DNA of 64,000 bases from Candidatus Moranbacteria bacterium RIFOXYB1_FULL_43_19 (lineage in GTDB: Bacteria; Patescibacteriota; Minisyncoccia; Moranbacterales; UBA11712): the NCBI GenBank assembly GCA_001784875.1, contig MFSH01000015.1, forward strand, positions 47,933-111,932, written 5' to 3'. Within the stretch, counting starts at the first letter, position 1; each line of letters begins with the position of its first letter. This document shows positions 6,361 to 45,170 of the stretch, piece after piece. Made by a program: the position numbers and the translations under genes. The notes beneath the pieces are model-generated. The model was not told the DNA's origin. It was given only the letters and a program-made list of their open reading frames with translations, and searched no databases.

Positions 6361-7072
6361 TATGTTTTGGATTTATGTGCCACCGATAATTTTTGTCACC
6401 GCGCTGATTTTTTTGGTTGTTATGTTCGGGAAAAAAACGGCTCTTTTGAAAAAAAAGGGAGAAATCTCACGTCCCCGCGCAGAGACTTTTTCTATGGGAA
6501 AAAACAGAAGCGAAAAATGGAAAAGCATATGGGCTCTTGTTTTGAGATTTTTGGAAGGAACGATGAACTTAGTCAAAATTGGCATAAGAAAAACAGAGGC
6601 AGCCTTGTCAAAAACTCTTCACAGAATGAAGGAAAGAAGGCTGGGAAGAAAAATTCACGAGCCGCTTGCTGAAAAAAGAGACGAGAGCCTTTATTTCGAA
6701 AGCGAGGAGGCGGCACAGAATCTTGACCTCGTGAAAAGTGAAAAAAGCGAAGAGCGCAGCCGCAATATCCCTAAAAAAGATTTTTTCAGCGAAGGAGTGG
6801 TTGTAAAAAAGAAAGAAGAACCTGCGCCGCAAAGGATCGTCCCGGAACTAGCGGCGGAAGACAGGGCAAAGGAGGAAGCGCTAATCCATCGGATCGCGGA
6901 AAATCCCAAAGACAATGAAGCCTATCGCGAATTGGGTGATTATTATATGTCCATTGGCAATATAAAAGACGCGAAAGATTCTTTCAAAATGGTCTTGAAA
7001 CTTCGCCCGAGAGACCTCAAAGCCAAAAGCAGCCTCAGGGAGATTGAGATGAGAATGAGGCTGGGTTCGTGA
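6347..7072 (+). CDS. Membrane-anchored TPR-repeat protein
   Basis: N-terminal TM helix, charged linker, C-terminal TPR-like AYRELGDYYMSIGNIKDAKDSFKMVLKLRP. Confidence 0.45.
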   Translation: MNLNNMFWIYVPPIIFVTALIFLVVMFGKKTALLKKKGEISRPRAETFSMGKNRSEKWKSIWALVLRFLEGTMNLVKIGIRKTEAALSKTLHRMKERRLGRKIHEPLAEKRDESLYFESEEAAQNLDLVKSEKSEERSRNIPKKDFFSEGVVVKKKEEPAPQRIVPELAAEDRAKEEALIHRIAENPKDNEAYRELGDYYMSIGNIKDAKDSFKMVLKLRPRDLKAKSSLREIEMRMRLGS

Positions 7073-7145
7073 AATTAAAAACTAAAAAATAAAAGCGAAA
7101 AATTGTTGTGTCGCTCCGCGACGATTCTTTACTGATTATTTCATT

Positions 7146-7217
7146 GCCGCCCTAGCTCAATGGCAGAGCAACTGTTTTGTAAACAGTAGGTTGTGGGTTC
7201 GAATCCGACGGGCGGCT
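7146..7217 (+). tRNA. tRNA-Thr (anticodon UGU)
   Basis: Cloverleaf folded by hand: acceptor GCCGCCC/GGGCGGC, anticodon stem ACTGT/ACAGT, loop TTTGTAA, T-loop TTCGAAT; one G-G mismatch in the T-stem. Confidence 0.75.
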
Positions 7218-7290
7218 CATATTTGTTGTCAAGAGCGATAGTATCTAGATATCATTGCTTTTTGTGTAGTGTTCCTTTATAATCTGATTA

Positions 7291-7899
7291 ATGGCGGCAA
7301 TAAGCGAAAAAAATTTGGATAAAGTTAAAGAGCTGTATTATAAAGAGCAGCTTAGCGTTCAGGATGTCGCAAATAGGCTCAACGTTTCAATTGATGCGGT
7401 TTTTTACTGCATGAGAAAAAATAGTTTAGCAAGAAGAAAGACAAATGAGAGCAATTCCTTGAGATTCGAAAGATGCGCGCCCTCATTTAAATTAAAAAAT
7501 ACTAACAGCGAAAAATTACGGACATTGAAAATAATCGGCATAATGTTGTATTGGGCAGAAGGCTCCACAGCAGGTGACATGACAGTGGACTTTGCGAACA
7601 GCGACAAAGACATGATAGCGCTCTTTCTGAAATTTCTGCGAAAAGTTTGCGGCATAGATGAAGACAGGCTTCGGGTTTATTCCTATTTCTATGCTAATCA
7701 GAACATCAGCAAAAATATAAATTTCTGGAGTAAGGTTACGAAAATAGACAAAAAACAATTCACAAAGCCTTATATTCGGGAAGATTATGATAAAAACAAA
7801 ACACAAAAAATGCCATATGGCCTGATTCATATCAGATATTCAGATAAAAAATTGCTCAATTTGATAAAAAATTGGATAAATGGATATAGGAATTTTTGA
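7291..7899 (+). CDS. HTH-containing protein with a single LAGLIDADG-like motif (putative free-standing homing endonuclease)
   Basis: N-terminal HTH (LSVQDVANRLNVS), LYWAEGS motif resembling LAGLIDADG/LIWGDGS, downstream helix ALFLKFLRKVCGID; sits between two tRNA genes. Confidence 0.4.
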   Translation: MAAISEKNLDKVKELYYKEQLSVQDVANRLNVSIDAVFYCMRKNSLARRKTNESNSLRFERCAPSFKLKNTNSEKLRTLKIIGIMLYWAEGSTAGDMTVDFANSDKDMIALFLKFLRKVCGIDEDRLRVYSYFYANQNISKNINFWSKVTKIDKKQFTKPYIREDYDKNKTQKMPYGLIHIRYSDKKLLNLIKNWINGYRNF

Positions 7900-7904
7900 A
7901 TTAG

Positions 7905-7987
7905 GGGTCGGTACCCAAGTGGTTAAAGGGGACGGTCTGTAAAACCGTTGGCTTCGGTCTACGCAGGTTCGAATCCTGCCCGGCCCA
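7905..7987 (+). tRNA. tRNA-Tyr (anticodon GUA), long variable arm
   Basis: Acceptor GGGTCGG/CCGGCCC (one G-U), anticodon loop CTGTAAA, 14-nt variable arm, T-arm GCAGG-TTCGAAT-CCTGC. Confidence 0.8.
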
Positions 7988-8067
7988 AAAATGATTCCAG
8001 TCGAGGACTGTTCTCGACTACCTGCCATATTTCGACAAGTATCTTTGAATTTCGATAGAAAATATCA

Positions 8068-9057
8068 ATGCTTGATAAACCGGAACAAAACTCTCCTTAT
8101 CAGGAAAAAGGAAAAGAGATATCCGTTGCATCTGATATTGAAACATTTGGCCGCAGGCCGCGGAAAATTATAATCAAACTGGACTCAGATGGTTTTCCCA
8201 AAGCTGTGGCTTTTTTTGATATAGACAAAACTCTAGCGGAGTGTGGTTTTATTCATGGCGAAGCGTTTAAAAAATTATTTGCGGAGATATATCCCGACCA
8301 AGATCCAGACAAATTGACAGAACTATATCTAAAAGGTCTTCATCTTGGCACAACGTTTCGTGTTTTTCATCGTATGATCGGTATTGCGAGGGATGGAAGA
8401 AAAGAATGGGAGGATCCTGAAAAATATTTAGAGTGGCTCCCGGGCCATGAAAAAGAAGTTGATAAAAAAGGGGATGATCATAACTTGGCAGCCGAGCTTT
8501 CGATCAGGCACAGCCAGATGAGCGCAAAAATGGCCGAAGATATGTTCAACCGAGACCCGCAAATATTTGAACAAACAAAGATAAAACCGGTTTTTCACCT
8601 TGCAAAAATTTACCAGCGCATGGGAATTCCCATGTGTGTAATGACAGCTAATGACGAACCTTTTGCCAAAGCTGTTTGCAAATCACTAGGCCTTGCAGAC
8701 TCATTTATTGCTTTAGCGTGTCAGAAAGATTTTGTGGGACAGGGGAAAGAAGGCGCCATAGAATATTTAATCCAGAGACTAGAGGGAAAAGGAGTCCCTA
8801 TTCCGAGAAAATTTATTGTAGTAGGAGATTCGTTGAATGGAGATATTGGCAGTGGAGCAAAGTTTATGGCGGAGCACGGAGGTTATTCTGTGCGGGGCGT
8901 TTTGATAAGCGAAGGCGATATTGCGGACATGAGAGAGAAAGTCGAAAAGGATCCTAATCTGAAAGACATGCAGGTCGAAGTGTTAAAGCCTAGCGCGATA
9001 GGCGATGGAAGTCTGGCCAGTTACAGACGAAATAAAAAGACGAAGCCAAGAGTATAA
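8068..9057 (+). CDS. HAD-superfamily hydrolase
   Basis: Motif I FFDIDKTL, motif IV VVGDSLNGD. Confidence 0.65.
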   Translation: MLDKPEQNSPYQEKGKEISVASDIETFGRRPRKIIIKLDSDGFPKAVAFFDIDKTLAECGFIHGEAFKKLFAEIYPDQDPDKLTELYLKGLHLGTTFRVFHRMIGIARDGRKEWEDPEKYLEWLPGHEKEVDKKGDDHNLAAELSIRHSQMSAKMAEDMFNRDPQIFEQTKIKPVFHLAKIYQRMGIPMCVMTANDEPFAKAVCKSLGLADSFIALACQKDFVGQGKEGAIEYLIQRLEGKGVPIPRKFIVVGDSLNGDIGSGAKFMAEHGGYSVRGVLISEGDIADMREKVEKDPNLKDMQVEVLKPSAIGDGSLASYRRNKKTKPRV

Positions 9058-21402: not shown

Positions 21403-22128
21403 ATGGACCAATTCCAAAAAGAAAATAAAACTGAAGAAATAAGGCTTGATGTAAAATCAAAAATCCTTTTTGTCATATTGGGAATTCTTATCGTTGGTTC
21501 GGTCTCGGTGACATACTGGCGCTATATGGTTCAGCGCGATTATATCATCAAGGCCCAGATTAACTGTGATCCGGAAACAGAAAACTGCTTCATTTGGGAA
21601 TGCGACCTGATGTCGCTTGAAGAGGGCGAGGCTTGCACGGGCGTTCCCGACAATGATATCTGGTATTACAAGATATTCAACCGCAACGCGAAAAATATCC
21701 CCGATTGCGATCCGGCGGACGAAAATTGCACAGCTTATGTTTGCGGCGAGGGGGAAGCGGATTGCTCCGAAGAATTATGCAACGCGGAAAATGTCCCCGA
21801 AGGCGAAGAGTGCAGCAATCCCGAACAATATCTTCTCGAAAATCCTCCGATGGATGAAGAGGAGTGCGCCGAGGATGACGAAGAATGCCTGTCAGGATCG
21901 GAAGAAAGTGCAGAAGAGTGTGCTCCCGAAGATGAAGAATGTCTGGCGCAGCAAGAGGCCGCTGAATGTGAAGATGGGGATGAAAAGTGTCTAGCCGAGG
22001 AAGAAAGCCTGGAAAATAATGAAGCGCTGGACGAAATGGAAAAACAGGGAAATCCCAGTGAAGACAAGCCGGGCGAAACAGATTCCGGTGATCCGTATAT
22101 TCCTCCCTTAGGCGCAGAGCCGAACTAA
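21403..22128 (+). CDS. Membrane-anchored, extremely acidic Cys-rich repeat protein (hypothetical)
   Basis: N-terminal TM helix, then about 190 aa containing ten or more Cys in a repeated [D/E]EEC pattern and a very high Glu/Asp content. Confidence 0.5.
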   Translation: MDQFQKENKTEEIRLDVKSKILFVILGILIVGSVSVTYWRYMVQRDYIIKAQINCDPETENCFIWECDLMSLEEGEACTGVPDNDIWYYKIFNRNAKNIPDCDPADENCTAYVCGEGEADCSEELCNAENVPEGEECSNPEQYLLENPPMDEEECAEDDEECLSGSEESAEECAPEDEECLAQQEAAECEDGDEKCLAEEESLENNEALDEMEKQGNPSEDKPGETDSGDPYIPPLGAEPN

Positions 22129-22142
22129 TTCAAAACACCAGA

Positions 22143-22562
22143 ATGTTCAAAAAACTTTTCAAAAGCAAAAAAACATGCAACTTCGGAGAGCATTTCACGC
22201 TGGACGGATATGGTGGAAGCTTCAAAAAGCTTGATGATAGAAAATTGGTTCTTCGTTGCCTTGAAGAGCTTCCCAAAAAAATTGGAATGAATATTCTTGG
22301 CGCTCCCGTTGTTTATAAGGCCGACGACAACGGGATAAAAGACGCCGGAGGCTGGAGCGGATTCGTGGTGGTGGCCGAATCTCACATAAGCATTCATACT
22401 TTTCCCCACCGGCAGTTTGTGAGCATTGACGTCTATACCTGTAAAGACGGCATGAACCGAAAATTTGTCGCCAGCTATTTCACCAAGAAATTCAACCTGA
22501 AAGATGTTGAAACCCACTTTATCCGGCGGGGAACAAAATATCCGGTTGATATGGTCTGTTAA
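22143..22562 (+). CDS. speH: S-adenosylmethionine decarboxylase proenzyme (pyruvoyl-dependent, SpeH type)
   Basis: VVVAESHISIHTFPH matches the AdoMetDC self-cleavage motif (E-S cleavage site). Confidence 0.7.
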   Translation: MFKKLFKSKKTCNFGEHFTLDGYGGSFKKLDDRKLVLRCLEELPKKIGMNILGAPVVYKADDNGIKDAGGWSGFVVVAESHISIHTFPHRQFVSIDVYTCKDGMNRKFVASYFTKKFNLKDVETHFIRRGTKYPVDMVC

Positions 22563-22580
22563 AATTTTGCAATTTAAAAA

Positions 22581-23108
22581 TTGGATGCAAATACTATAAA
22601 AAATAAAAGATTCATTCTCCGGAGGCTCAAAATGAGTGACGCAGAATCAATTGTAAAATATGCAAATGATAAACTTGTTGCCAAAAATTTGGCAAGGCTT
22701 CCACATCCTTACACAATAGGAGACGCTAGAGCTTGGCTGAAGAAAAAACAAAATCAATATAAGCAAAAAAATCCCACTGAATTCGTCTTTGCAATCGAAA
22801 TTGAAAATGAAGCGGTGGGTTCAATAGGATTTAATAATATTACTGTTGGGCACAAAGCAGAAATGGGCTATTGGATTGGAAGAAAATATTGGGGTAAAGG
22901 ATTGATGACCGAGGTTGTAAAGAACGCTTCCAGATACGCCTTCAAAGTTTTCAAGCTACGAAGACTTCAGACCTATACTTATCCGAGCAACAAAGCATCT
23001 AAGCGCGTTCTTGAGAAAAATAATTTCAAATTTGAAGGTGTGCTGAAAAAGGGCATCAGAAAAGAAGATATGTTTTTTGATGCTCATATTTTTGCGAAGG
23101 TGTCTTAA
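22581..23108 (+). CDS. GNAT-family N-acetyltransferase (RimJ/RimL-like)
   Basis: GSIGFNNITVGHKAEMGYWIGRKYWGKG acetyl-CoA-binding motif. Confidence 0.7.
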   Translation: MDANTIKNKRFILRRLKMSDAESIVKYANDKLVAKNLARLPHPYTIGDARAWLKKKQNQYKQKNPTEFVFAIEIENEAVGSIGFNNITVGHKAEMGYWIGRKYWGKGLMTEVVKNASRYAFKVFKLRRLQTYTYPSNKASKRVLEKNNFKFEGVLKKGIRKEDMFFDAHIFAKVS

Positions 23109-23133
23109 CTTTAAAATATTTATTCCGATTATT

Positions 23134-23157
23134 AAGGCTTATATAAAGCCTTTTTTA
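23134..23157 (+). terminator. Rho-independent terminator after the GNAT gene
   Basis: aggctt-atat-aagcct hairpin followed by TTTTTT. Confidence 0.6.
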
Positions 23158-23184
23158 ATTGGAATGATTGTTTCCTAACTGTAT

Positions 23185-23213
23185 TTGACATAAAATAATA
23201 ATTGTGATATTAT
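23185..23213 (+). promoter_or_regulatory. Putative sigma70-type promoter for the 23241-27315 operon
   Basis: TTGACA-17 nt-TATTAT, 28 nt upstream of the start codon. Confidence 0.45.
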
Positions 23214-23240
23214 GAACCGTTGGATAATTAGGTAAAATAT

Positions 23241-24278
23241 ATGGTCTTGATATCACAAATTTTTGAATTTATTTCGAGCAATTGGCTAATTGTAGCTTTT
23301 TTAGCGCCAATGTCTTGGGCGCTGGTGAACATCATTGATGTTTATTTTGTTGAAGAAATTTATCGAGACGAAGTCGACGGTACAATAATCTCGGGTATTT
23401 TCCAGATACTTCCTTGGATTATCATATTTCCTCTTTTTAACATTAATATTTCTGATTATTTTAGTATAAATTTTGGTTATTATAGTTCTAATAAAATGCA
23501 ATTTTCTTTCTTTATGCATGATTCCCTCCTTTATTCACTCATGGGTGGCCTATTATTTTCATTAGTTTTTTATTTTTATTACAGAGCGCTCTTCAGGCAA
23601 AATGACGTATCTCTTGTCGAGATATTCAATAATTTATCGGTGGTTATTATTCCTTTTGTTGCGTATATTTTTTTTAGAGAAAAATTATCCTTTATCGGTT
23701 ACGTTGGAATGGGTATCACTCTTCTTGGAGCTATGATGTTGATGGGAGATTCGATAGTTAAGAAAAATATCTCATTTAGTCTTCTGAGTACGATGTTTGC
23801 CTGCGCCTTATTCTTATCCTTGAGTCTTGTTTTTGAGGAACATGCTTATTCTATATTGAACGTCCAAGGTCTCGACAATTCAGGTTTTTGGGCTGGTTTC
23901 TTTTTCTTTTCACTTGGGGTTTTTGTGGGTTCGATTATTTTTGCAGTTGTTCATTCTAGAAATATATTGCCTATATTAAGAAAATATACCTATGTTTTTA
24001 TAATTGCAGAAGGTATTTCATTCTTAGGTACGCTTTTTATGCAAAGAGCTCTCGACATCGGGCCATCGGCGTCATTCGTGGTCACCATTGAAACATTTGT
24101 TCCCGCATTTGTTCTGTTGTATAGTATAATTATTGTCTGTGCCTTCCATATTTCCAAGCGTTCAGAAAAAATTGGCCAGATTTTGCCCAATCTCTATAAA
24201 ATGCAGCTAAAAAAACTCGTTCCGAAGATTTTATCAATAGTTATTATGGGGATGGGCGTTTATATTTTTAATCTGTAA
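23241..24278 (+). CDS. Polytopic membrane protein (about 10 TM; possible DMT/EamA-like transporter)
   Basis: 345 aa, repeated hydrophobic helices; only 12 nt before the PRMT-like gene. Confidence 0.45.
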   Translation: MVLISQIFEFISSNWLIVAFLAPMSWALVNIIDVYFVEEIYRDEVDGTIISGIFQILPWIIIFPLFNINISDYFSINFGYYSSNKMQFSFFMHDSLLYSLMGGLLFSLVFYFYYRALFRQNDVSLVEIFNNLSVVIIPFVAYIFFREKLSFIGYVGMGITLLGAMMLMGDSIVKKNISFSLLSTMFACALFLSLSLVFEEHAYSILNVQGLDNSGFWAGFFFFSLGVFVGSIIFAVVHSRNILPILRKYTYVFIIAEGISFLGTLFMQRALDIGPSASFVVTIETFVPAFVLLYSIIIVCAFHISKRSEKIGQILPNLYKMQLKKLVPKILSIVIMGMGVYIFNL

Positions 24279-24290
24279 AATAAGATATAA

Positions 24291-25127
24291 ATGTGTGACG
24301 AAGCATTTAGTTCGATAGATATAGTTCATCAGTGCCTCATAGATGAATCGCGAACCACAGCATTTGCCAGGGCAATAAAAAAACTAGTAAAAAAGGGAGA
24401 CATTGTTATCGATGCCGGAACTGGATCGGGCATTTTGGCGTTATTTGCTGCCAGGGCTGGCGCAAAAAAGGTGATTGCGCTCGAAAACGATGATTTTGTC
24501 GCCGAAATTACAAAAAAAATAGTCGCGGATAATGGATACGAAGACATAATCGACATAAAAATCGGGGATGCAAGAAACTTCAATTTTGGAAAAATTAAAT
24601 TCGACTTGGTTATTATGGAATTATTGACAACAGGAATGATAGATGAATATCAACTTGAAGCGAATAACAATCTTCATAAACAAAAAGTTATTAAGAAATC
24701 AACCATATTTATTCCAAGTCGTGTCGAAACATTTATTTCTCTTGTAAATGCACAATTTGATTTATATGGCTTTAAAATGAAAATGGTAAAACATTTGTGG
24801 AATAATTTATCAGAAAACCAAAAGTATGATATTATTAGTAATGAAAAGGCACTAAACCTGATAAAATTTAATAATAGGAATAAACAGATATTTAAATCCC
24901 TAGTCTCCCTAAAGCCAAAAAAGAATGGAAAGGTGAATGCAATACTATTAAGAAGTAAAACCTATTTATCAAAAGGGATATCTCTTAGTGATACAGAAAC
25001 ATTTAATGCTCCCGTCATAATTCCTTTTGAAGATGAATTTGTCGTAGAAAAAAACAAGAACGAAAAAATAAAAATACAGTATGAATTTGGCAAGGGATAC
25101 CAAACATTTTCAACAAGAAAAAAATGA
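24291..25127 (+). CDS. PRMT-like class I SAM-dependent protein (arginine) methyltransferase
   Basis: Motif I VIDAGTGSGILALFAARAGAKKVIALE, double-E-loop-like VIMELLTTGMIDE; 4-nt ATGA overlap with the next gene. Confidence 0.6.
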   Translation: MCDEAFSSIDIVHQCLIDESRTTAFARAIKKLVKKGDIVIDAGTGSGILALFAARAGAKKVIALENDDFVAEITKKIVADNGYEDIIDIKIGDARNFNFGKIKFDLVIMELLTTGMIDEYQLEANNNLHKQKVIKKSTIFIPSRVETFISLVNAQFDLYGFKMKMVKHLWNNLSENQKYDIISNEKALNLIKFNNRNKQIFKSLVSLKPKKNGKVNAILLRSKTYLSKGISLSDTETFNAPVIIPFEDEFVVEKNKNEKIKIQYEFGKGYQTFSTRKK

Positions 25128-25642
25128 TTCAAAAAAATTTCTCTCTATATAGCGAGAAACTTCACCTAAAAAGAATTGCGGGAGGTGGAAAAGGAATATT
25201 CACAAAGAAAAATATAAAAAAAGGGGAAACTGTGATTGTTTATGGTGGTTACGCAATGACTTCCGAACAACACGCAAAGCTTCCAAAATATATGGAGTAC
25301 TTTTCTTTTCATATTGATGATAATATATTAATAGGCATTAAGAATAAAAAGCAGATATCCTTAGGGGAATATATAAATCATAGTTGCAATCCAAATTGTG
25401 GATTTAGAGACCAATTATTTTTAATCGCTATGAGAGACATAAAGAAAGGAGAAGAAATTACAACTGATTATGCCTTTTTTGTCACTTCAAACACCCTTAC
25501 CTTAAATTGCCAATGCGGTTCGCCTAACTGTAGAGGAGTTATAAGACATACAGACTGGCAATTAAAAAGTTTGCAAAAGAAGTATAAAAAATATTTTCAA
25601 ATTTATATTCAGGAAAAAATAAAAAATAAAAGCAAAAGATGA
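25124..25642 (+). CDS. SET-domain protein (putative protein lysine methyltransferase)
   Basis: NHSCNPNC, EEITTDY and post-SET CQCGSPNC motifs; ATGA overlaps on both sides. Confidence 0.8.
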   Translation: MIQKNFSLYSEKLHLKRIAGGGKGIFTKKNIKKGETVIVYGGYAMTSEQHAKLPKYMEYFSFHIDDNILIGIKNKKQISLGEYINHSCNPNCGFRDQLFLIAMRDIKKGEEITTDYAFFVTSNTLTLNCQCGSPNCRGVIRHTDWQLKSLQKKYKKYFQIYIQEKIKNKSKR

Positions 25643-27315
25643 TAACTTGTCCATGGGAACCAGCAAAGTATCTGATATTTTCTAGTAATGTGCCATCAAT
25701 TCTTTTTTATGCTCTAATTCCCGGAATGATTGTCGGCGCGCTTCTGGGCTTTTTCGTTTATTTAAAAAATAGAAAATATCTTCCTGCATTAATATTGCTA
25801 GTAATTTCAATCCTTTTCTTTGCCTGGGGATTTTTCGATTTAATACTTTTTGCTACAAATAATCCTTTCGCAGTTATAGTTTTATGGGCATACACGATTT
25901 TAACTGAAGTCCTCATTTACGCTTTTAGTCTGTATCTTTCTTACGTTTTCCTATTTAAACGTGATGCTTCTTTAAAAATAAAAGCATTTATCTTTTTTCT
26001 TTTGGCCCCAGTTATCGCAGTTCTTCCAACACCACTTAATCTCAAAGGTGTTAACCTTGCGGATTGCACCGCGATTGAAAATAAATTTATTATCTTTTAC
26101 AGTTACTCATTGGAAATATTTTTTGCATTGCTTATTTTAGCAATGGCTCTTAAGAAGTATCGAATTTCGCGGGATTCTTCAGAAAAAAAGCAAGCAATTC
26201 TATTTGCATTTGGGATTTCCCTGTTTCTTATTACTTTCTCATCCGGAAATATTATCGGAAGTATTACGGGAGACTGGGTTACATCGCAGTATGGTTATTT
26301 TGGCATGCCGATATTTATCGGTTTCCTGGCCTATCTCATCGTGAAATATAAGGCTTTTAATGTGAAGCTGATTGCATCGCAGGCCCTTGTTGTGGGGCTT
26401 ATCATCGGAATCGGCGCGCAGTTTTTCTTTATACAGAATACGACCAACCAAATTTTAACAGCAATTACTCTTGCCATCGCGATAATTTTTGGCTATCAGC
26501 TCGTCCGTTCTGTGAAGCTTGAAGTCCAGCGGAAAGAGGAATTGGAAAAGCTCTCAACATTGCTTGCGCAGGCCAACGACAAACTGCACCAGCTTGACAG
26601 GGCCAAATCGGAATTCATTTCCATTGCATCTCACCAGCTGCGGACGCCGCTCACATCCATCAAGGGCTTCGGGTCTTTGCTTCTTGAAGGGACATACGGC
26701 CAGGTTCCCGATACCCAAAGGCATGCTCTCGAAAAGATATACGTGTCCAATGAGCGCCTGATCCAGCTCGTTGAAGATCTTTTGAACATTTCCCGGATGG
26801 AGGCAGGGAGGATGGAATTTGACTTCCAGGAGGCGCAGATTGAGGATCTGATCCAGGAAGCGGCGGATACTCTTGAGCTTTCTGCCAAAGCCAAGAGCCT
26901 TTATCTCCATTGGCAAAAACCGGCTTTGGCTTTGCCGAAAACAAAAATTGACATCACCAAAATCAAAGAAGTGATTTCAAATATGATCGACAACGCTATC
27001 AAATATTCGCAAAGGGGCGGGGTGACTGTGCGGGCGGAAAAAGGGAGTTTCTTTGACCATGAAGCGAGAGAACAAAAAAATGTCATCCGCGTCACCGTTT
27101 CTGATACGGGAATCGGCATGGACAAGGAGGAACTGGAAAGCATCTTCAACAAATTCGAGCGGGGGAAGCAGGTGAGCCACTATCACACCGACGGGACAGG
27201 GCTTGGGATGTACGTCGGCAAGAAAATAGTCGAGGCCCACCATGGGCGCATCTGGGCTGAATCAGATGGAAAAGGAAAGGGGAGCCGTTTTATTTTGGAA
27301 TTGCCAATTAGTTAG
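25639..27315 (+). CDS. Sensor histidine kinase with an N-terminal 7-8 TM domain
   Basis: H-box SHQLRTPLTSIKGF, N-box and G2 GTGLGMYVGKKIVEAHHG; multi-TM N-terminus. Confidence 0.85.
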   Translation: MITCPWEPAKYLIFSSNVPSILFYALIPGMIVGALLGFFVYLKNRKYLPALILLVISILFFAWGFFDLILFATNNPFAVIVLWAYTILTEVLIYAFSLYLSYVFLFKRDASLKIKAFIFFLLAPVIAVLPTPLNLKGVNLADCTAIENKFIIFYSYSLEIFFALLILAMALKKYRISRDSSEKKQAILFAFGISLFLITFSSGNIIGSITGDWVTSQYGYFGMPIFIGFLAYLIVKYKAFNVKLIASQALVVGLIIGIGAQFFFIQNTTNQILTAITLAIAIIFGYQLVRSVKLEVQRKEELEKLSTLLAQANDKLHQLDRAKSEFISIASHQLRTPLTSIKGFGSLLLEGTYGQVPDTQRHALEKIYVSNERLIQLVEDLLNISRMEAGRMEFDFQEAQIEDLIQEAADTLELSAKAKSLYLHWQKPALALPKTKIDITKIKEVISNMIDNAIKYSQRGGVTVRAEKGSFFDHEAREQKNVIRVTVSDTGIGMDKEELESIFNKFERGKQVSHYHTDGTGLGMYVGKKIVEAHHGRIWAESDGKGKGSRFILELPIS

Positions 27316-27390
27316 TATTTTGTATCTGGTATATCGTATTTGGTATTTTCTGAGGGACTAAATACTAGCTATAAAATACTAAATACCAGC
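27314..27390. repeat. Imperfect palindromic intergenic element containing CTGGTATTTAGTATTTT modules (same family as 38653-38677)
   Basis: tagtattttgtatctggtat... and reverse-complement aaaatactaaataccag arms; a second copy sits after pgk. Confidence 0.5.
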
Positions 27391-27448
27391 CTTGTTTTTT
27401 CGTGCCATTTGTGGTACGATTTTTTGTGTCAAGCAGAATTATTAACTT

Positions 27449-28726
27449 ATGGAAAACAACCAAAAAGTCTGTGTCATTGGGTTGGGGTATGTCGGCTTTC
27501 CGCTGGCAGTTTTGTGTTCAGTCAAAGGCTACGAGGTGTATGGCTACGACAAAGACAAAGAGAAGCTCGCGCGGATTGAAAAAAAGGAAAATATTGTCGA
27601 GGAGAAATATCTTGACGAAATGATTCCTAAGGCGAAAATCAATATTGTCCGCGACGAAAACGAAATAAGAAATTGCGATATCAGCATCATCGCTGTTCCG
27701 ACACCAGTCGATGAAAAGCATTTTCCGGATTTGAGTTTTGTCCAGTCGGCTTCCCAAACCGTTGCTAAAAATTTGAAACCTGGAGCCTTGGTAATTGTCG
27801 AATCAACCATCAATCCCGGAGTTTGCGATGAAATAGTTAGGCCTATTTTTGAAAAAGAGGGGTATACAGTTGGAAAAGATGTTTTTATTTCCCATTGCCC
27901 CGAAAGGATAAATCCCGGAGATTCGAAATGGAACGTAGCCAATATTCCCCGCGTGGTTGGGTCTTTTGAAAAAAATGGCCTCGAGAAAGCGCTGGATTTT
28001 TATCGGAGTGTGATCGATGCCGAAATAATGCCGATGGAAACAATCCAGGAAGCCGAAGCGGTAAAAATAGTCGAAAACTCTTTTCGGGACATAAACATTG
28101 CCTTCGTAAATGAGTTGGCAAAGTCTTTCAGTCTCATGGGGATTGACGTGACAAATGTCATCAGAGGGGCGGCGACAAAGCCATTCGCCTTTATGCCTCA
28201 TTGGCCCAGCCGGGGAGTGGGCGGGCACTGTATTCCGGTTGACCCTTATTATCTCATTGAAAAAGCGAAGGATTATGATTTTGACCACCAATTTCTACGA
28301 ATCGCCCGGGCCATAAACAACAGCATGCCTTTTTACACGATTGAGCTGCTTCAAACGGCTCTGGCTGAAATAGGAAAATCTCTCAAAAATGCAGATATTG
28401 GAATTTTGGGAGTTTCCTACAAGGCCAATGTCGGTGACCTTCGGGAAAGCCCCACGCTGAAAATAATCAAAAATCTTGAAGAAAACGGCGCCAAGCTTCA
28501 CGTATATGATCCCTATATCCCCGAACATTCAAATGTTTCCGGGATCGAAGAAATTCTGGAAAAATCAGAAGCCGTAATGGTGCTTACGGATCACAGGGAA
28601 TTTCTGGAAATAGCGCTCGAAGATTACAAAAAACAGGGCATAAAAGCCATCATCGACGGGATGAACTGCCTTGACAAGAAAAAAATTCTTGAGCTCGGGA
28701 TGATTTACAAGGGGATCGGAAGATAA
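27449..28726 (+). CDS. UDP-sugar (UDP-glucose / UDP-ManNAc) dehydrogenase family protein
   Basis: Rossmann VCVIGLGYVGFPLAV, catalytic GGHCIPVDPYYL. Confidence 0.85.
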   Translation: MENNQKVCVIGLGYVGFPLAVLCSVKGYEVYGYDKDKEKLARIEKKENIVEEKYLDEMIPKAKINIVRDENEIRNCDISIIAVPTPVDEKHFPDLSFVQSASQTVAKNLKPGALVIVESTINPGVCDEIVRPIFEKEGYTVGKDVFISHCPERINPGDSKWNVANIPRVVGSFEKNGLEKALDFYRSVIDAEIMPMETIQEAEAVKIVENSFRDINIAFVNELAKSFSLMGIDVTNVIRGAATKPFAFMPHWPSRGVGGHCIPVDPYYLIEKAKDYDFDHQFLRIARAINNSMPFYTIELLQTALAEIGKSLKNADIGILGVSYKANVGDLRESPTLKIIKNLEENGAKLHVYDPYIPEHSNVSGIEEILEKSEAVMVLTDHREFLEIALEDYKKQGIKAIIDGMNCLDKKKILELGMIYKGIGR

Positions 28727-29946: not shown

Positions 29947-30759
29947 ATGAGCAAAATCTACATTATTGAAGATGACCCGATGCTCGTTGAAATATACGAG
30001 AAAAAGCTGACAGATGCAGGATTTGAGGTAAAAGTCACGGCGAGCGGCACAACGGTCAAAGATGAGATGATCGACTGGAAGCCGGATCTGGTGCTTTTGG
30101 ATGTCGTTCTTCCGGATATGGACGGCTTCGAGATTATGGAAGTTATCAAAAAAGAACCGAACATCAAAGATATTCCAGTGTTTGTTTTCAGCAATTTGTC
30201 ATCTAAAGAAGATATGGACAGGGCAACAAGCCTTGGAGCGGCCGGATTTCTCACAAAATCGAGCTTCACCCCATCCCAGCTGGCTGATGAAATAAAGAAG
30301 ATTCTTGGCCACGCGGTGCCGGCCTCAACTCCTCTTTCTGCTCCAAATTCCCAAGAAACCGTTCCTCATCAAATCAGTGCCGAACCGAATGGCCATAAAG
30401 TCCTCATCATTGAAGATGAAGATATTTTCATCGAAATGTTTGGCGCAAAACTGAAACAGGAAGGATTTGAAGTTGTCGCGGCCAAAAACGGGAAATGGGG
30501 GCTCAAAGAAGCGGAAAAAGGAGGTTTTGACTGCGTGCTTCTGGACATGATGATGCCGGCTATGAACGGGTTTGAGGCTATTCAGGAGCTTCGGGCGAAT
30601 GAAAATACAAAAAATATTCCAATCATTATTCTTTCCAATTCGGCTCTTGACAGTGAAGTCCAGAAAGCGATGGAGCTGGGAGCCAATGCCTATCATATCA
30701 AAACTCAAATTACTCCCGGAGAAGTGGCGGAGGAAGTGAAGGAGTTGATAAAGAAATAA
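29947..30759 (+). CDS. Response regulator with two tandem receiver domains and no output domain
   Basis: REC1 DLVLLDVVLPDMDG; REC2 DCVLLDMMMPAMNG; both retain Asp, Ser/Thr and Lys. Confidence 0.8.
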   Translation: MSKIYIIEDDPMLVEIYEKKLTDAGFEVKVTASGTTVKDEMIDWKPDLVLLDVVLPDMDGFEIMEVIKKEPNIKDIPVFVFSNLSSKEDMDRATSLGAAGFLTKSSFTPSQLADEIKKILGHAVPASTPLSAPNSQETVPHQISAEPNGHKVLIIEDEDIFIEMFGAKLKQEGFEVVAAKNGKWGLKEAEKGGFDCVLLDMMMPAMNGFEAIQELRANENTKNIPIIILSNSALDSEVQKAMELGANAYHIKTQITPGEVAEEVKELIKK

Positions 30760-44551: not shown

Positions 44552-44609
44552 CATTATCCCAGCTTTAATGCGGGTATTTTCCTGGCATTGGGAATTGGGA
44601 GGAATTTAT

Positions 44610-45170
44610 ATGACAAAACCAAGGATTCTCATTGTTGATGACAACGATGTTGTCAGGGAAACATATGCTCAGGTTTTTAAGCAAAAAGGCTTTAACGTCA
44701 TTTCGGCAGTTGATGGAGTAGAGGGAGTCGATTTTGCTACAAAAGAAATTCCAAATGTGATCCTGACCGGAATTGTTATGCCTCGCATGGACGGGTTCCA
44801 ACTGATCAGAACTCTTCAGGAGAATGTACAAACCAGGGAAATTCCAATTGCCATTATTTCTCATTTGGGGCGCGAAGAAGATCGGAGAAAAGCCCAAGAA
44901 CTGGGCATTAACGAATTTATTGTCCAGGGAGCAGCCTCAGTGAATGAAATAGTTGAAAGAATAAAAAATCTTGTGAAAGACGGTGAGAGTTTCAAGCTAA
45001 GCTTTGATCCCTATGCCTGGGATGCCCCGAGAATGGCAAAAACTCTTCCTGGCAAGAGTTTCAACTGCCCGAATTGCCAGGAAAAAATGATCCTGGAAGT
45101 GATTCCCAAACCAGAAGGAGCTGGATATAACGCTGCCCTAAAGTGTCAAAAATGCAATTATATTTTATAG
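44610..45170 (+). CDS. Pseudo-receiver domain protein with a C-terminal zinc ribbon
   Basis: REC fold with DD pocket (LIVDDN), but the phospho-acceptor is Gly (VILTGIVMPRMDG) and the conserved Lys is Gln; C-terminal CPNCQ...CQKC; GGGAGG RBS 8 nt before ATG 44610. Confidence 0.6.
   Translation: MTKPRILIVDDNDVVRETYAQVFKQKGFNVISAVDGVEGVDFATKEIPNVILTGIVMPRMDGFQLIRTLQENVQTREIPIAIISHLGREEDRRKAQELGINEFIVQGAASVNEIVERIKNLVKDGESFKLSFDPYAWDAPRMAKTLPGKSFNCPNCQEKMILEVIPKPEGAGYNAALKCQKCNYIL

Follow-up and report, generated by a model that had tools for sequence, protein, structure and literature searches.

This work concerns four genes, named g1 to g4, in a stretch of 64,000 nucleotides (the window) from contig MFSH01000015.1 of Candidatus Moranbacteria bacterium RIFOXYB1_FULL_43_19. 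They run in one direction between positions 23241 and 27315 (+). g1 (23241-24278, +) encodes a polytopic EamA/DMT-like protein of 345 aa, g2 (24291-25127, +) a predicted S-adenosylmethionine (SAM)-dependent N-methyltransferase of 278 aa with the fold of the protein arginine methyltransferases (PRMTs), g3 (25124-25642, +) a predicted SET-domain N-methyltransferase of 172 aa, and g4 (25639-27315, +) a membrane histidine kinase of 558 aa. The comparison with related loci revealed that these genes very probably form a modular cassette that is conserved mainly in Patescibacteria/Paceibacteria. In it, the membrane partner, the methyltransferase or methyltransferases and the sensor half of the kinase would share one line of inheritance, distinct from that of the catalytic half.

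g1 and g2 are separated by a gap of 12 nt (24279-24290), and the remaining genes share ATGA start/stop overlaps, at 25124-25127 for g2/g3 and at 25639-25642 for g3/g4. The best sigma-70-like match within 22000-28000 is a promoter candidate at 23185-23213 (+), which reads TTGACA-17-TATTAT with a TG extension and has 11 of 12 matches. Terminator-like hairpins are located on both sides of the genes, one at 23134-23152 (+), with a 7-bp stem, 3 G-C pairs and a T run, and the other at 27400-27419 (+), starting 85 nt past g4, with an 8-bp stem and 4 G-C pairs followed by TTTTTTGTGT; the promoter candidate and both hairpins are consensus matches only. The first hairpin would close the transcript of the preceding GNAT gene and mark the 5' boundary of the unit, and the second would mark its 3' boundary. 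The original prediction, made from the DNA letters and their translations, had described four open reading frames after one promoter-like site with this gap and these two overlaps. All of them are present as claimed, and every motif quoted for g2, g3 and g4 was located in the sequences.

The products of the four genes

The g2 protein presents motif I (VIDAGTGSG, residues 39-47; VIDAGTGSG...ALE, residues 39-65) and a double-E loop (VIMELLTTGMIDE, residues 107-119) in which E110 and E119 are nine residues apart. In an alignment of 26 family members with 44-56% identity, R21, G43, G45, E65, E110 and E119 are invariant. D18 is invariant together with R21, and the g2 segment CLIDESRT aligns to the PRMT segment MLKDxxRT. 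R21 corresponds to PRMT1 R54, the arginine of the N-terminal helix that binds the SAM carboxylate. Since this arginine is invariant, SAM rather than decarboxylated SAM would be the cofactor of g2. By sequence, the closest solved relatives are the eukaryotic PRMT1/6/8 (5.7e-16 to 1e-13), PrmA being found at 7e-7 in the same structure-sequence comparison, and the best match of the g2 family profile is mouse PRMT7 (1.6e-23). The alignments with PRMTs span the N-terminal DxxRT segment, motif I and the double-E loop. Regarding Pfam, only generic class I methyltransferase models were matched, with PrmA as the best one (1.1e-13). An AlphaFold2 model built on the family alignment (pLDDT 90.0, pTM 0.87) shows a Rossmann domain followed by an all-beta domain, in agreement with the beta-barrel of PRMTs, and the top 50 Foldseek matches of this model in the PDB are all PRMTs (TM 0.72-0.84). 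The sequence matches, the invariant double-E glutamates and the model with its Foldseek matches indicate that g2 is a PRMT-fold enzyme and not PrmA.

The original prediction of a PRMT is therefore supported by motif I, the double-E loop, the beta-barrel and the SAM-binding arginine, and the structure predicted for the 24291-25127 product presents the PRMT fold that had been expected. Two features of PRMTs are lacking. A helical dimerisation arm was not found in the model or in the profile alignment, where the arm region (155-178) is non-helical and 9-11 residues shorter than in PRMT8, respectively. Likewise, there is no T-H-W tripeptide in the g2 sequence, the HMMER alignments ending before that region; H168-x-W170 (in the arm region), T235 and N239 are invariant in the family instead.

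In public databases, g2 homologues are named '50S ribosomal protein L11 methyltransferase' or 'predicted RNA methylase'. The identification of g2 as PrmA or as an RNA methylase was rejected on Pfam, NCBIfam and fold evidence, and no full-length match to PrmA, including the N-terminal L11-recognition domain, was obtained at the curated score. The L11-methyltransferase label is wrong by these tests and constitutes a widespread misannotation. A function as the aminopropyltransferase partner of S-adenosylmethionine decarboxylase (AdoMetDC) is also unlikely, given the invariant Arg21 and the PRMT fold.

The g2 family is large, with 278 clusters (50% identity, E <= 1e-30, full-length) among 1.84 billion representatives. 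In some homologues, of about 465 aa, the PRMT-like domain is fused behind a membrane domain that forms the N-terminal part of the protein; the membrane part of one of them, P0111, was modelled with a pLDDT of 31-70. These long homologues had been considered as PRMT-SET fusions, an option that was rejected because their N-terminal part is the membrane domain. The search of the g2 family also provided other fusion members. P0436 joins the PRMT-like domain to LPG_synthase_C (below the cut-off), and P0414, P0480 and P0384 represent the remaining types, which are a CxxCxxCC domain (PF03692), an N-terminal TrmB-type helix-turn-helix and a weak Radical_SAM match. In one locus (L028, positions 6980-8856; L numbers designate the loci compared here), two tandem PRMT-like paralogues (2e-75 and 8e-37 against g2) stand ahead of the kinase.

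Concerning g3, the motifs NHSCNPNC (85-92), EEITTDY (110-116) and CQCGSPNC (129-136) are present, and the protein matches the Pfam SET model at 6.8e-20 (71.9 bits, versus a cut-off of 22.4). The match to the SET/post-SET region of MLL1 reaches 2.9e-18, that to BurB 7e-6 and that to the NCBIfam model of LegAS4 1.1e-5, the last one far under its cut-off. N85, H86, C88, P90, D115 and Y116 are invariant in 22 sequences, as are the cysteines C129, C131 and C136 of the post-SET zinc motif, which align with the post-SET motif of MLL1. The same 22 relatives conserve a basic and aromatic C-terminal tail of the subfamily (DW..LQ..Y..F..K). The Pfam score, the MLL1 match and the invariant motifs confirm the SET domain that had been read from the sequence, and g3 can be described as a canonical SET/post-SET enzyme.

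The g4 kinase consists of a sensor half (25639-26505, +) and a cytoplasmic half (26506-27315, +). The latter comprises the juxtamembrane segment VRSVKLEVQRKEE, a HisKA domain (1.6e-19, 70.2 bits; H-box SHQLRTPL), whose His332 is invariant in the kinase alignment A3, and a HATPase_c domain (3.4e-25, 89.1 bits). These domains agree with the canonical HisKA/HATPase kinase of the original prediction; the sensor, for which 7-8 transmembrane (TM) segments had been proposed, has about 9 according to hydropathy and the positive-inside rule, with a predicted N-out/C-in topology. This topology places its near-invariant features, namely Cys4 (CPWE), Cys143 and the GNIIGSxTxDW loop, outside the cytoplasm. 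The sensor of the window had no match at E<=1 to PF16927, which we take to be HisKA_7TM, and its sole match was 7TMR-DISM_7TM at 0.063. Several g4 homologues carry a precomputed PF16927 match. It should also be noted that the same sensor is joined to two types of phospho-acceptor, SHQLRTP (HisKA) and THQ/K-x-KG (alignment A2; kinases of L007, L008, L010, L015-L017, L021, L026, L032, L045 and L046), and that for kinases of the THQ/K-x-KG type the precomputed Pfam annotation is frequently HATPase_c alone.

The g1 protein, with 10-11 TM segments by hydropathy, occupies the membrane partner slot of the cassette. It scored 18.5 bits against Pfam EamA, under the cut-off of 28.2, and homologues of the same family exceed this cut-off, with 37.9 bits in L024 and 52.8 bits in L009. 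The likeness to EamA/DMT proteins is weak on the score of g1 itself and clearer through its homologues. EamA-like genes were found in about 48 loci, and a 4-TM family ('fam5') or a 6-7-TM family ('PNR') often precedes either methyltransferase; these family labels are those of the present analysis. A common ancestry of the EamA-like, fam5 and fam4 partners was rejected, as they are unrelated by hhalign, and only fusTM/fam13, fam19 and fam43 are mutually homologous among the partner families. The family fam4 is a separate 6-TM protein of about 270 aa, located before a shorter kinase (about 465 aa) without the g4-type sensor in L011, L014, L024, L027 and L085, and close to a PRMT-like gene in L011, L024 and L027. 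This pair of genes may represent a split or alternative sensor arrangement.

Conservation of the linkage and inheritance of the sensor half

Three sets of loci were compared. A scan of species-representative genomes provided 35 loci chosen through g2, another 4 were chosen through g3, and 80 were anchored on the sensor of g4. The last ones are metagenome loci, including some near-duplicates, and are the only set that is unbiased regarding the methyltransferases. The genes of the fetched loci come from a simple open reading frame caller, so that some starts are over-extended (for instance, 413 aa in L009).

In about 27 of the 35 g2-anchored loci, the gene after the PRMT-like one, only a few bases away or overlapping it, encodes a g4-type kinase; the membrane regions of these kinases match the sensor of g4 with E values of 1e-38 to 1e-93. 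SET genes appear in only three of these 35 loci, which are L005, with an order like that of the window, and two from Blastocatellia, where a PRMT-SET-EamA trio is found without a g4-type kinase. From the side of g3, its closest homologues are located in EamA-SET-kinase loci that lack a PRMT-like gene, and their kinases carry the g4 sensor (1e-25 to 1e-118). Directly upstream of the kinase, the 80 sensor-anchored loci present SET only in 16 cases, PRMT-like only in 15, PRMT-like followed by SET in 2, an EamA-like gene and no methyltransferase in 30, and another gene or the contig edge in 17. Since the genes abutting the kinase alternate in this way, the PRMT-like and SET genes occupy one slot. 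The unit is therefore a membrane partner, then a PRMT-like gene, a SET gene, both or none, and then a histidine kinase with about 9 TM segments, and the window contains its fullest version.

Furthermore, an identical g2 protein with the same gene arrangement is present on at least 23 public metagenome contigs, and the named g2 homologues belong to metagenome-assembled genomes (MAGs) of Patescibacteria/Paceibacterota. It is the conservation in more than 100 loci, and not the overlaps, that places the arrangement beyond chance. Downstream of the kinase, no gene is conserved across the loci, response regulators included, and a receiver (REC) gene lies inside the fetched region in only 11 of them.

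These results qualify the original prediction, in which both methyltransferases were hard-wired to the sensor. The linkage to this kinase family is conserved for both of them, from whichever of the three anchors it is viewed, but it is modular and optional, given that 38% of the kinase-anchored loci lack a methyltransferase and that SET genes are so rare in the PRMT-anchored set. The placement of g2 in a small-molecule or rRNA methyltransferase family without the double-E loop, or a lack of the SET-kinase linkage in related genomes, had been named as findings that would speak against it; neither was observed, because the double-E glutamates are invariant and the linkage is conserved in relatives. 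Full-text literature searches yielded no publication on a histidine kinase coupled to either a PRMT-like or a SET gene, nor on the Patescibacteria cassette, in line with the earlier view that the architecture had not been described.

Regarding the history of the kinase, neighbour-joining trees were built with 70 non-redundant full-length kinases (31 PRMT-linked, 13 SET-linked, 4 linked to both and 22 EamA-only), and the changes in the class of the upstream genes were counted by the Fitch method for each kinase region and compared with the random expectation. The sensor (1-285) required 9 changes, versus a random mean of 32.7 and a minimum of 25, and its N-terminal and C-terminal halves required 10 and 13 (random about 33). 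In the catalytic half (320-558) there were 24 changes (random mean 32.7, minimum 26), with 25 for DHp (300-400) and 23 for the ATPase (430-558), where about 33 is expected at random. When only PRMT-linked and SET-linked kinases were compared, the sensor required 4 changes and the catalytic half 11, the random mean being 11.4. In the sensor tree, dual PRMT+SET loci are located between PRMT-only and SET-only relatives in several places. Moreover, the Spearman correlation of pairwise distances, calculated on pairs that are not independent, was 0.37 for PRMT-sensor, 0.11 for PRMT-ATPase and 0.14 for sensor-ATPase.

The base composition changes at the same place. In the window, the GC content at third codon positions (GC3) is 0.27-0.36 for the GNAT gene (0.34), g1, g2, g3 and the sensor half of g4 (0.36), and 0.60 for its catalytic half; the flanking genes have 0.48-0.54. 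A GC3 step within the kinase gene was also found in L008 and L054, and none in L005. In L004 the overall GC steps from 0.36 to 0.52 and GC3 does not. A simple foreign insertion was not adopted as the explanation of the low GC, in view of the similar step inside the kinases of L008 and L054 (and in the overall GC of L004). As the class changes, the distance correlations and the GC3 step agree, they are read as recombination at the sensor/DHp junction, with the partner, the methyltransferase and the sensor behaving as one cassette. Two points weaken this reading, since the neighbour-joining trees have no support values and physical linkage alone gives co-segregation of the sensor once intragenic recombination happens.

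Within the sensor, the columns that best discriminate PRMT-linked from SET-linked kinases cluster in the outer loop of Cys143 and at position 211, which is mostly acidic in the PRMT-linked ones; the sample is small and the signal is confounded with phylogeny. Mean mutual information did not separate the inner from the outer sensor loops (0.183 versus 0.175), the clustering near Cys143 being limited to the top columns.

The pattern of inheritance bears on two less likely explanations. According to one of them, the genes have no shared function, g2 being a housekeeping ribosomal-protein or RNA methyltransferase and g3 a nucleoid-protein methyltransferase, placed together by inherited gene order in compact genomes. 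The public names of the homologues (L11 methyltransferase, RNA methylase) are in its favour, as well as the compact and partly syntenic genomes of Patescibacteria, in which housekeeping genes recur near the module. Nevertheless, two unrelated methyltransferase families swap in one slot, with overlaps, across sensors that are only 25-60% identical, the methyltransferase type follows the sensor tree and not the catalytic tree, and membrane-domain fusions occur in the PRMT-like family. The absence of a common function is consequently considered quite unlikely.

The other explanation had been raised in the original prediction, which considered the enzymes as possibly effector-like. Many Patescibacteria are thought to be episymbionts, and g2 and g3 could be exported to the host to methylate its proteins, like Legionella RomA/LegAS4 and Chlamydia NUE. 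SET-domain effectors are known from intracellular pathogens (PMC2904774, PMC3980110), and g3 shows the weak resemblance to LegAS4 mentioned above. However, neither a signal peptide nor a secretion-system context was seen in the sequences, the genes are co-inherited with the sensor domain of the bacterium itself, and the same cassette parts are found in Blastocatellia on an 889-kb contig. Besides, the likely hosts of Patescibacteria are prokaryotes that lack histones. An effector function is thus extremely improbable.

Genomic neighbourhood and possible substrates

The upstream genes were analysed in the 69 non-redundant loci where three or more genes precede the kinase. A membrane partner occurs in 54 of these loci, and 38 contain a polyamine or guanidine gene no more than five genes upstream, with an AdoMetDC homologue in 26, a deoxyhypusine synthase (DHS) homologue in 18, an arginase-family gene in 5 and an amidinotransferase in 5. 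These genes most often stand in the order AdoMetDC, DHS, partner, methyltransferase and kinase, and the domain matches of these neighbours are strong (Pfam DS 4e-95, Arginase 7e-58). In four loci (L010, L015, L017 and L021) an arginine-dependent amidinotransferase, which matches SxtG (2e-112), HsvA (3e-108) and human AGAT (9e-103), is immediately upstream of the PRMT-like gene. Amidino transfer followed by N-methylation of the guanidine would parallel creatine biosynthesis. Other loci have genes of MetK and S-adenosylhomocysteine hydrolase adjoining the module, or an archaeal-type AdoMet synthase at a distance of 3 kb. As a further observation, the complete order in the four amidinotransferase loci is PNR-type membrane protein, amidinotransferase, PRMT-like gene and kinase, and L106 also has an amidinotransferase.

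These neighbours can be compared with published polyamine pathways. According to PMC10407285, 'anomalous' AdoMetDC homologues are often arginine or ornithine decarboxylases, and those that cluster with speY, which encodes a bacterial DHS homologue, are typically arginine decarboxylases. SpeY converts two agmatines into N1,N9-bis(guanidino)homospermidine, and an agmatinase-type ureohydrolase then yields homospermidine, as stated in PMC13625781; the speDA-speY-speB pathway thus leads to homospermidine via agmatine and this bis(guanidino) intermediate (PMC10407285, PMC13625781).

In the window, an AdoMetDC/SpeD homologue (22143-22562, +; Pfam AdoMet_dc 7.6e-25) is located upstream of the four genes. 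It is a conserved neighbour, found upstream of the module in 35 loci, and its product may be a neofunctionalised arginine decarboxylase. It is followed by the GNAT gene (22581-23108, +; Acetyltransf_3, Pfam 8.8e-33), which belongs to the low-GC3 block with g1-g3 and has a counterpart upstream in L065. Before both of them, a gene at 21403-22128 (+) encodes a TM-anchored and very acidic protein without Pfam or NCBIfam match. One of its segments is rich in Cys (CDP..C..C..C), and the copy in the window also has a long tail of acidic residues. Its family recurs near the module in 9 loci, in two of them between the SET gene and the kinase (L045:5536-5982 and L130:5610-5990), and it may be an extracytoplasmic accessory component.

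The other genes around the unit are an SHMT gene upstream and those of UDP-glucose dehydrogenase, GT2 and a REC-REC protein downstream. The REC-REC regulator (29947-30759, +), without an output domain, matches Pfam Response_reg in two stretches (1e-45) and is a candidate partner of g4; both receiver domains expected from the original prediction are present, with the acceptor Asp. The product of 44568-45170 (+), with a probable start at 44610, had been called a pseudo-receiver, and this description holds because Gly replaces the phospho-acceptor Asp (..VILTGIVMP..); it also has a zinc-ribbon-like C-terminal tail (CxxC...CxxC). Rfam and tRNA scans detected no RNA gene inside the locus, and the only RNA genes detected in the window were tRNA-Thr(TGT) at 7146-7218 (+) and tRNA-Tyr(GTA) at 7905-7987 (+).

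Outside the kinase cassette, the SET gene of an Omnitrophica genome is the last, overlapping gene of an operon with AdoMet_dc, spermidine synthase and saccharopine-dehydrogenase-like genes and no kinase. In a Clostridia MAG (L128:4496-5513), overlapping GNAT and SET genes stand before a short-chain dehydrogenase/reductase gene, in a region that also contains relaxase, integrase and RepA genes, which suggests a mobile amine-modifying gene set.

Taken as a whole, the genomic context favours amine or guanidine substrates at least as strongly as protein substrates. The reading preferred here, to which a probability of roughly 40% is given, is a module that modifies, transports and senses small cationic amine or guanidine metabolites. 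The double-E pocket of g2 would N-methylate a guanidino group, such as that of agmatine, bis(guanidino)homospermidine, an amidinated polyamine or free arginine, and the lysine channel of g3 would N-methylate a primary amine of the aminobutyl type, such as homospermidine, putrescine, spermidine or free lysine. The compounds of the homospermidine pathway described above end in guanidinobutyl or aminobutyl groups, the aminobutyl group being the side chain of lysine and the guanidinobutyl group that of arginine plus one methylene. g1 would carry the substrate or the product across the membrane, and g4 would detect the compound on the extracytoplasmic or membrane face, through the Cys pair and the GNIIGS..DW loop, and signal to a regulator encoded elsewhere.

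If this is the case, the PRMT-like and SET enzymes would be interchangeable because they cap adjacent stages, guanidino intermediates and amine products. This metabolite reading accounts for the near-constant membrane partner and for the polyamine, amidinotransferase and SAM-related neighbours. It also accounts for the kinase-less PRMT-SET-EamA and polyamine-SET units, and for the co-variation of the sensor with the enzyme type, including the discriminating columns near Cys143 and 211. Regarding the chemistry, the SET enzyme BurB methylates free methionine (PMC12542666), and SznE/StzE has been reported as an arginine-guanidino methyltransferase that provides N-methyl-L-arginine to streptozotocin biosynthesis (PMC11705231), a precedent at the level of activity.

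Several points weigh against this reading. The close solved structural relatives of g2 are all protein arginine methyltransferases, there is no PRMT-fold precedent here for a free small-molecule substrate, and g3 is nearest to histone lysine methyltransferases (KMTs) of the MLL/NSD type (2.9e-18, with BurB at 7e-6). No DHS/SpeY, agmatinase, amidinotransferase or spermidine synthase gene was found in the 64-kb window. The Blastocatellia PRMT-SET-EamA trio has no polyamine neighbours, and two other SET homologues are in unrelated contexts. The association itself may partly reflect inherited gene order, since in some cases the polyamine genes are encoded on the other strand; housekeeping genes are repeatedly found close to the module too, and the 35 loci picked through the PRMT-like gene inflate the pooled counts.

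Another way to explain the linkage is that protein methylation at the membrane tunes signalling, a hypothesis close to one of the outcomes suggested originally. The Arg or Lys residues methylated by g2 and g3 would be in the kinase (for example, in its basic cytoplasmic loops or in the juxtamembrane RSVKxExxQRE), the membrane partner or the cognate regulator, and the methylation would adjust the output of the kinase in a way functionally comparable to CheR acting on chemoreceptors. The same structural relationships that weigh against small-molecule substrates speak for it, because the top relatives of g2 are all PRMTs and the SET/post-SET region of g3 is closest to histone KMTs, and both genes are translationally coupled to the kinase through the overlaps. 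The fusions of a PRMT-like and a membrane domain (about 465 aa) precede the kinase and would keep the enzyme at the membrane, where the conserved basic and aromatic tail of the SET family could also bind the membrane or a partner. Direct contact would explain the co-variation of the sensor half with the methyltransferase type too. Moreover, positions 45 and 51 in loop 1 of the kinase are basic in at least 80% of the methyltransferase-linked kinases versus 14% or less of the EamA-only ones; this signal could be phylogenetic, given that EamA-only sensors form their own clades.

Nevertheless, no kinase column is Arg in PRMT-linked and Lys in SET-linked kinases, so the test for matching targets was negative for methylation-modulated signalling through the kinase. 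Protein methylation would also have to accommodate the 38% of kinase-anchored loci without a methyltransferase, the kinase-less PRMT-SET-EamA trio of Blastocatellia and the SET gene of the Omnitrophica polyamine operon. A demethylase was not detected in any of the conserved neighbour families, and the dimerisation arm on which eukaryotic PRMTs depend is missing from g2. On these data, signalling tuned by protein methylation is the closest rival of the metabolite reading and somewhat less probable than it.

Lipids were also considered as substrates, since LPG_synthase_C genes are found beside the module in L024, L028, L032 and L130. An MprF-like synthase would make lipids of the Lys- or Arg-phosphatidylglycerol type, the SET or PRMT-like enzyme would methylate their head groups, the partner would flip them and the kinase would monitor the charge of the envelope. 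A standalone LPG_synthase_C gene (Pfam 2.5e-28) adjoins the module in the first three of these loci, L130 presents, one after the other, LPG_synthase_C, EamA, SET, a small protein and the kinase, P0436 combines the PRMT-like domain with LPG_synthase_C, and all the components are membrane-associated. However, only these 4 loci and one fusion, whose domain match remains at 25.7 bits versus a cut-off of 27.5, present such an association, the window has no LPG_synthase_C gene and polyamine genes are far commoner as neighbours. In addition, we know of no precedent for methylated aminoacyl lipids. The methylation of lipid head groups is therefore very unlikely.

Comparison with known systems and biological meaning

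g2 shares with eukaryotic PRMTs, especially PRMT7 and PRMT3, motif I and the N-terminal DxxR(T/S) with the arginine for the SAM carboxylate. The spacing of nine residues in the double-E loop is that of PRMT7, where 'ELFDTELIGE' aligns to 'EMLTTGMIDE' of g2, and the loop aligns to that of PRMT1 as well. Unlike the eukaryotic enzymes, g2 has only 278 aa, a short non-helical arm and no THW, and it is a bacterial protein, from a family that is sometimes fused to membrane domains, encoded with a sensor kinase. The PRMT fold is not new in bacteria in itself, because operons of secondary metabolism had already been noted to contain PRMT-like 'peptide methylases' (Aravind et al. 2011, cited through PMC3417536). 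These are also bacterial PRMT relatives, so that PRMT-type enzymes are not restricted to eukaryotes, but their genes are described beside those of NRPS, dioxygenases and amine oxidases, whereas g2 is accompanied by a membrane protein and a histidine kinase beside polyamine genes. Concerning g3, it is similar to the small bacterial and archaeal SET enzymes in being a standalone protein of about 170 aa with NHSCxPN, the catalytic Tyr and post-SET cysteines. It differs from BurB in being far closer to MLL-type SET domains, in its subfamily-specific tail and in its operonic position with EamA and the kinase.

The neighbours found here (AdoMetDC and DHS homologues and arginase-family genes) match the type of the speDA-speY-speB clusters, and methyltransferase, EamA or kinase genes are not mentioned with those clusters in the available portions of PMC10407285 and PMC13625781. 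With respect to CheR and the chemoreceptors, the cassette has in common a SAM-dependent methyltransferase genetically tied to a membrane sensor. Nonetheless, CheR is an unrelated O-methyltransferase that acts on glutamates and works with the CheB esterase, while the folds found here are those of N-methyltransferases, and neither a demethylase in the conserved neighbour families nor a target residue in the kinase was found.

The staphylococcal agrBDCA and the Vibrio cqsA/cqsS systems are modules of a synthase, an exporter and a membrane kinase, and the variable unit of agr includes the sensor half of the kinase and not the catalytic half. The cassette would resemble them at the level of function, as it joins a polytopic kinase to a membrane protein and to a small enzyme of biosynthesis or modification, and as in agr its variable unit spans the enzyme and partner genes and the sensor half, the catalytic half being left out. 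It differs in that there is no response regulator in the operon, in that the enzymes are N-methyltransferases and not peptide-processing or acyl-transfer enzymes, and in that 38% of the kinases have no enzyme gene. A more specific form of the metabolite reading would be an autocrine or quorum-like signalling, in which N-methylated cationic metabolites made by the PRMT-fold and SET enzymes are exported by the partner and read on the outer face of the kinase, the specificity cassettes being exchanged. This form is unlikely. If it were true, the PRMT-linked, SET-linked and dual loci would correspond to different signal 'dialects', and it would be the first natural use of the PRMT fold on a free small molecule.

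The component families were already known, and the unusual features of the cassette are the alternation of two 'eukaryote-type' N-methyltransferase folds in one slot and the sensor half that moves with them. If the cassette is what the comparison suggests, the displacement of one fold by another, unrelated one in a single slot would constitute a natural experiment on functional equivalence. The results also suggest that sensor domains and accessory genes move as a unit, apart from the kinase core. They would define, for Patescibacteria, where there are few signalling systems and no genetics, a family of membrane sensor kinases that is large and uncharacterised, with methylated compounds of the agmatine or homospermidine type as candidate ligands. 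Under the same condition, the cassette would provide a physiological setting for bacterial PRMT-fold and SET enzymes that involves neither chromatin nor host manipulation, which would bear on the origin of the eukaryotic enzymes of Arg and Lys methylation.

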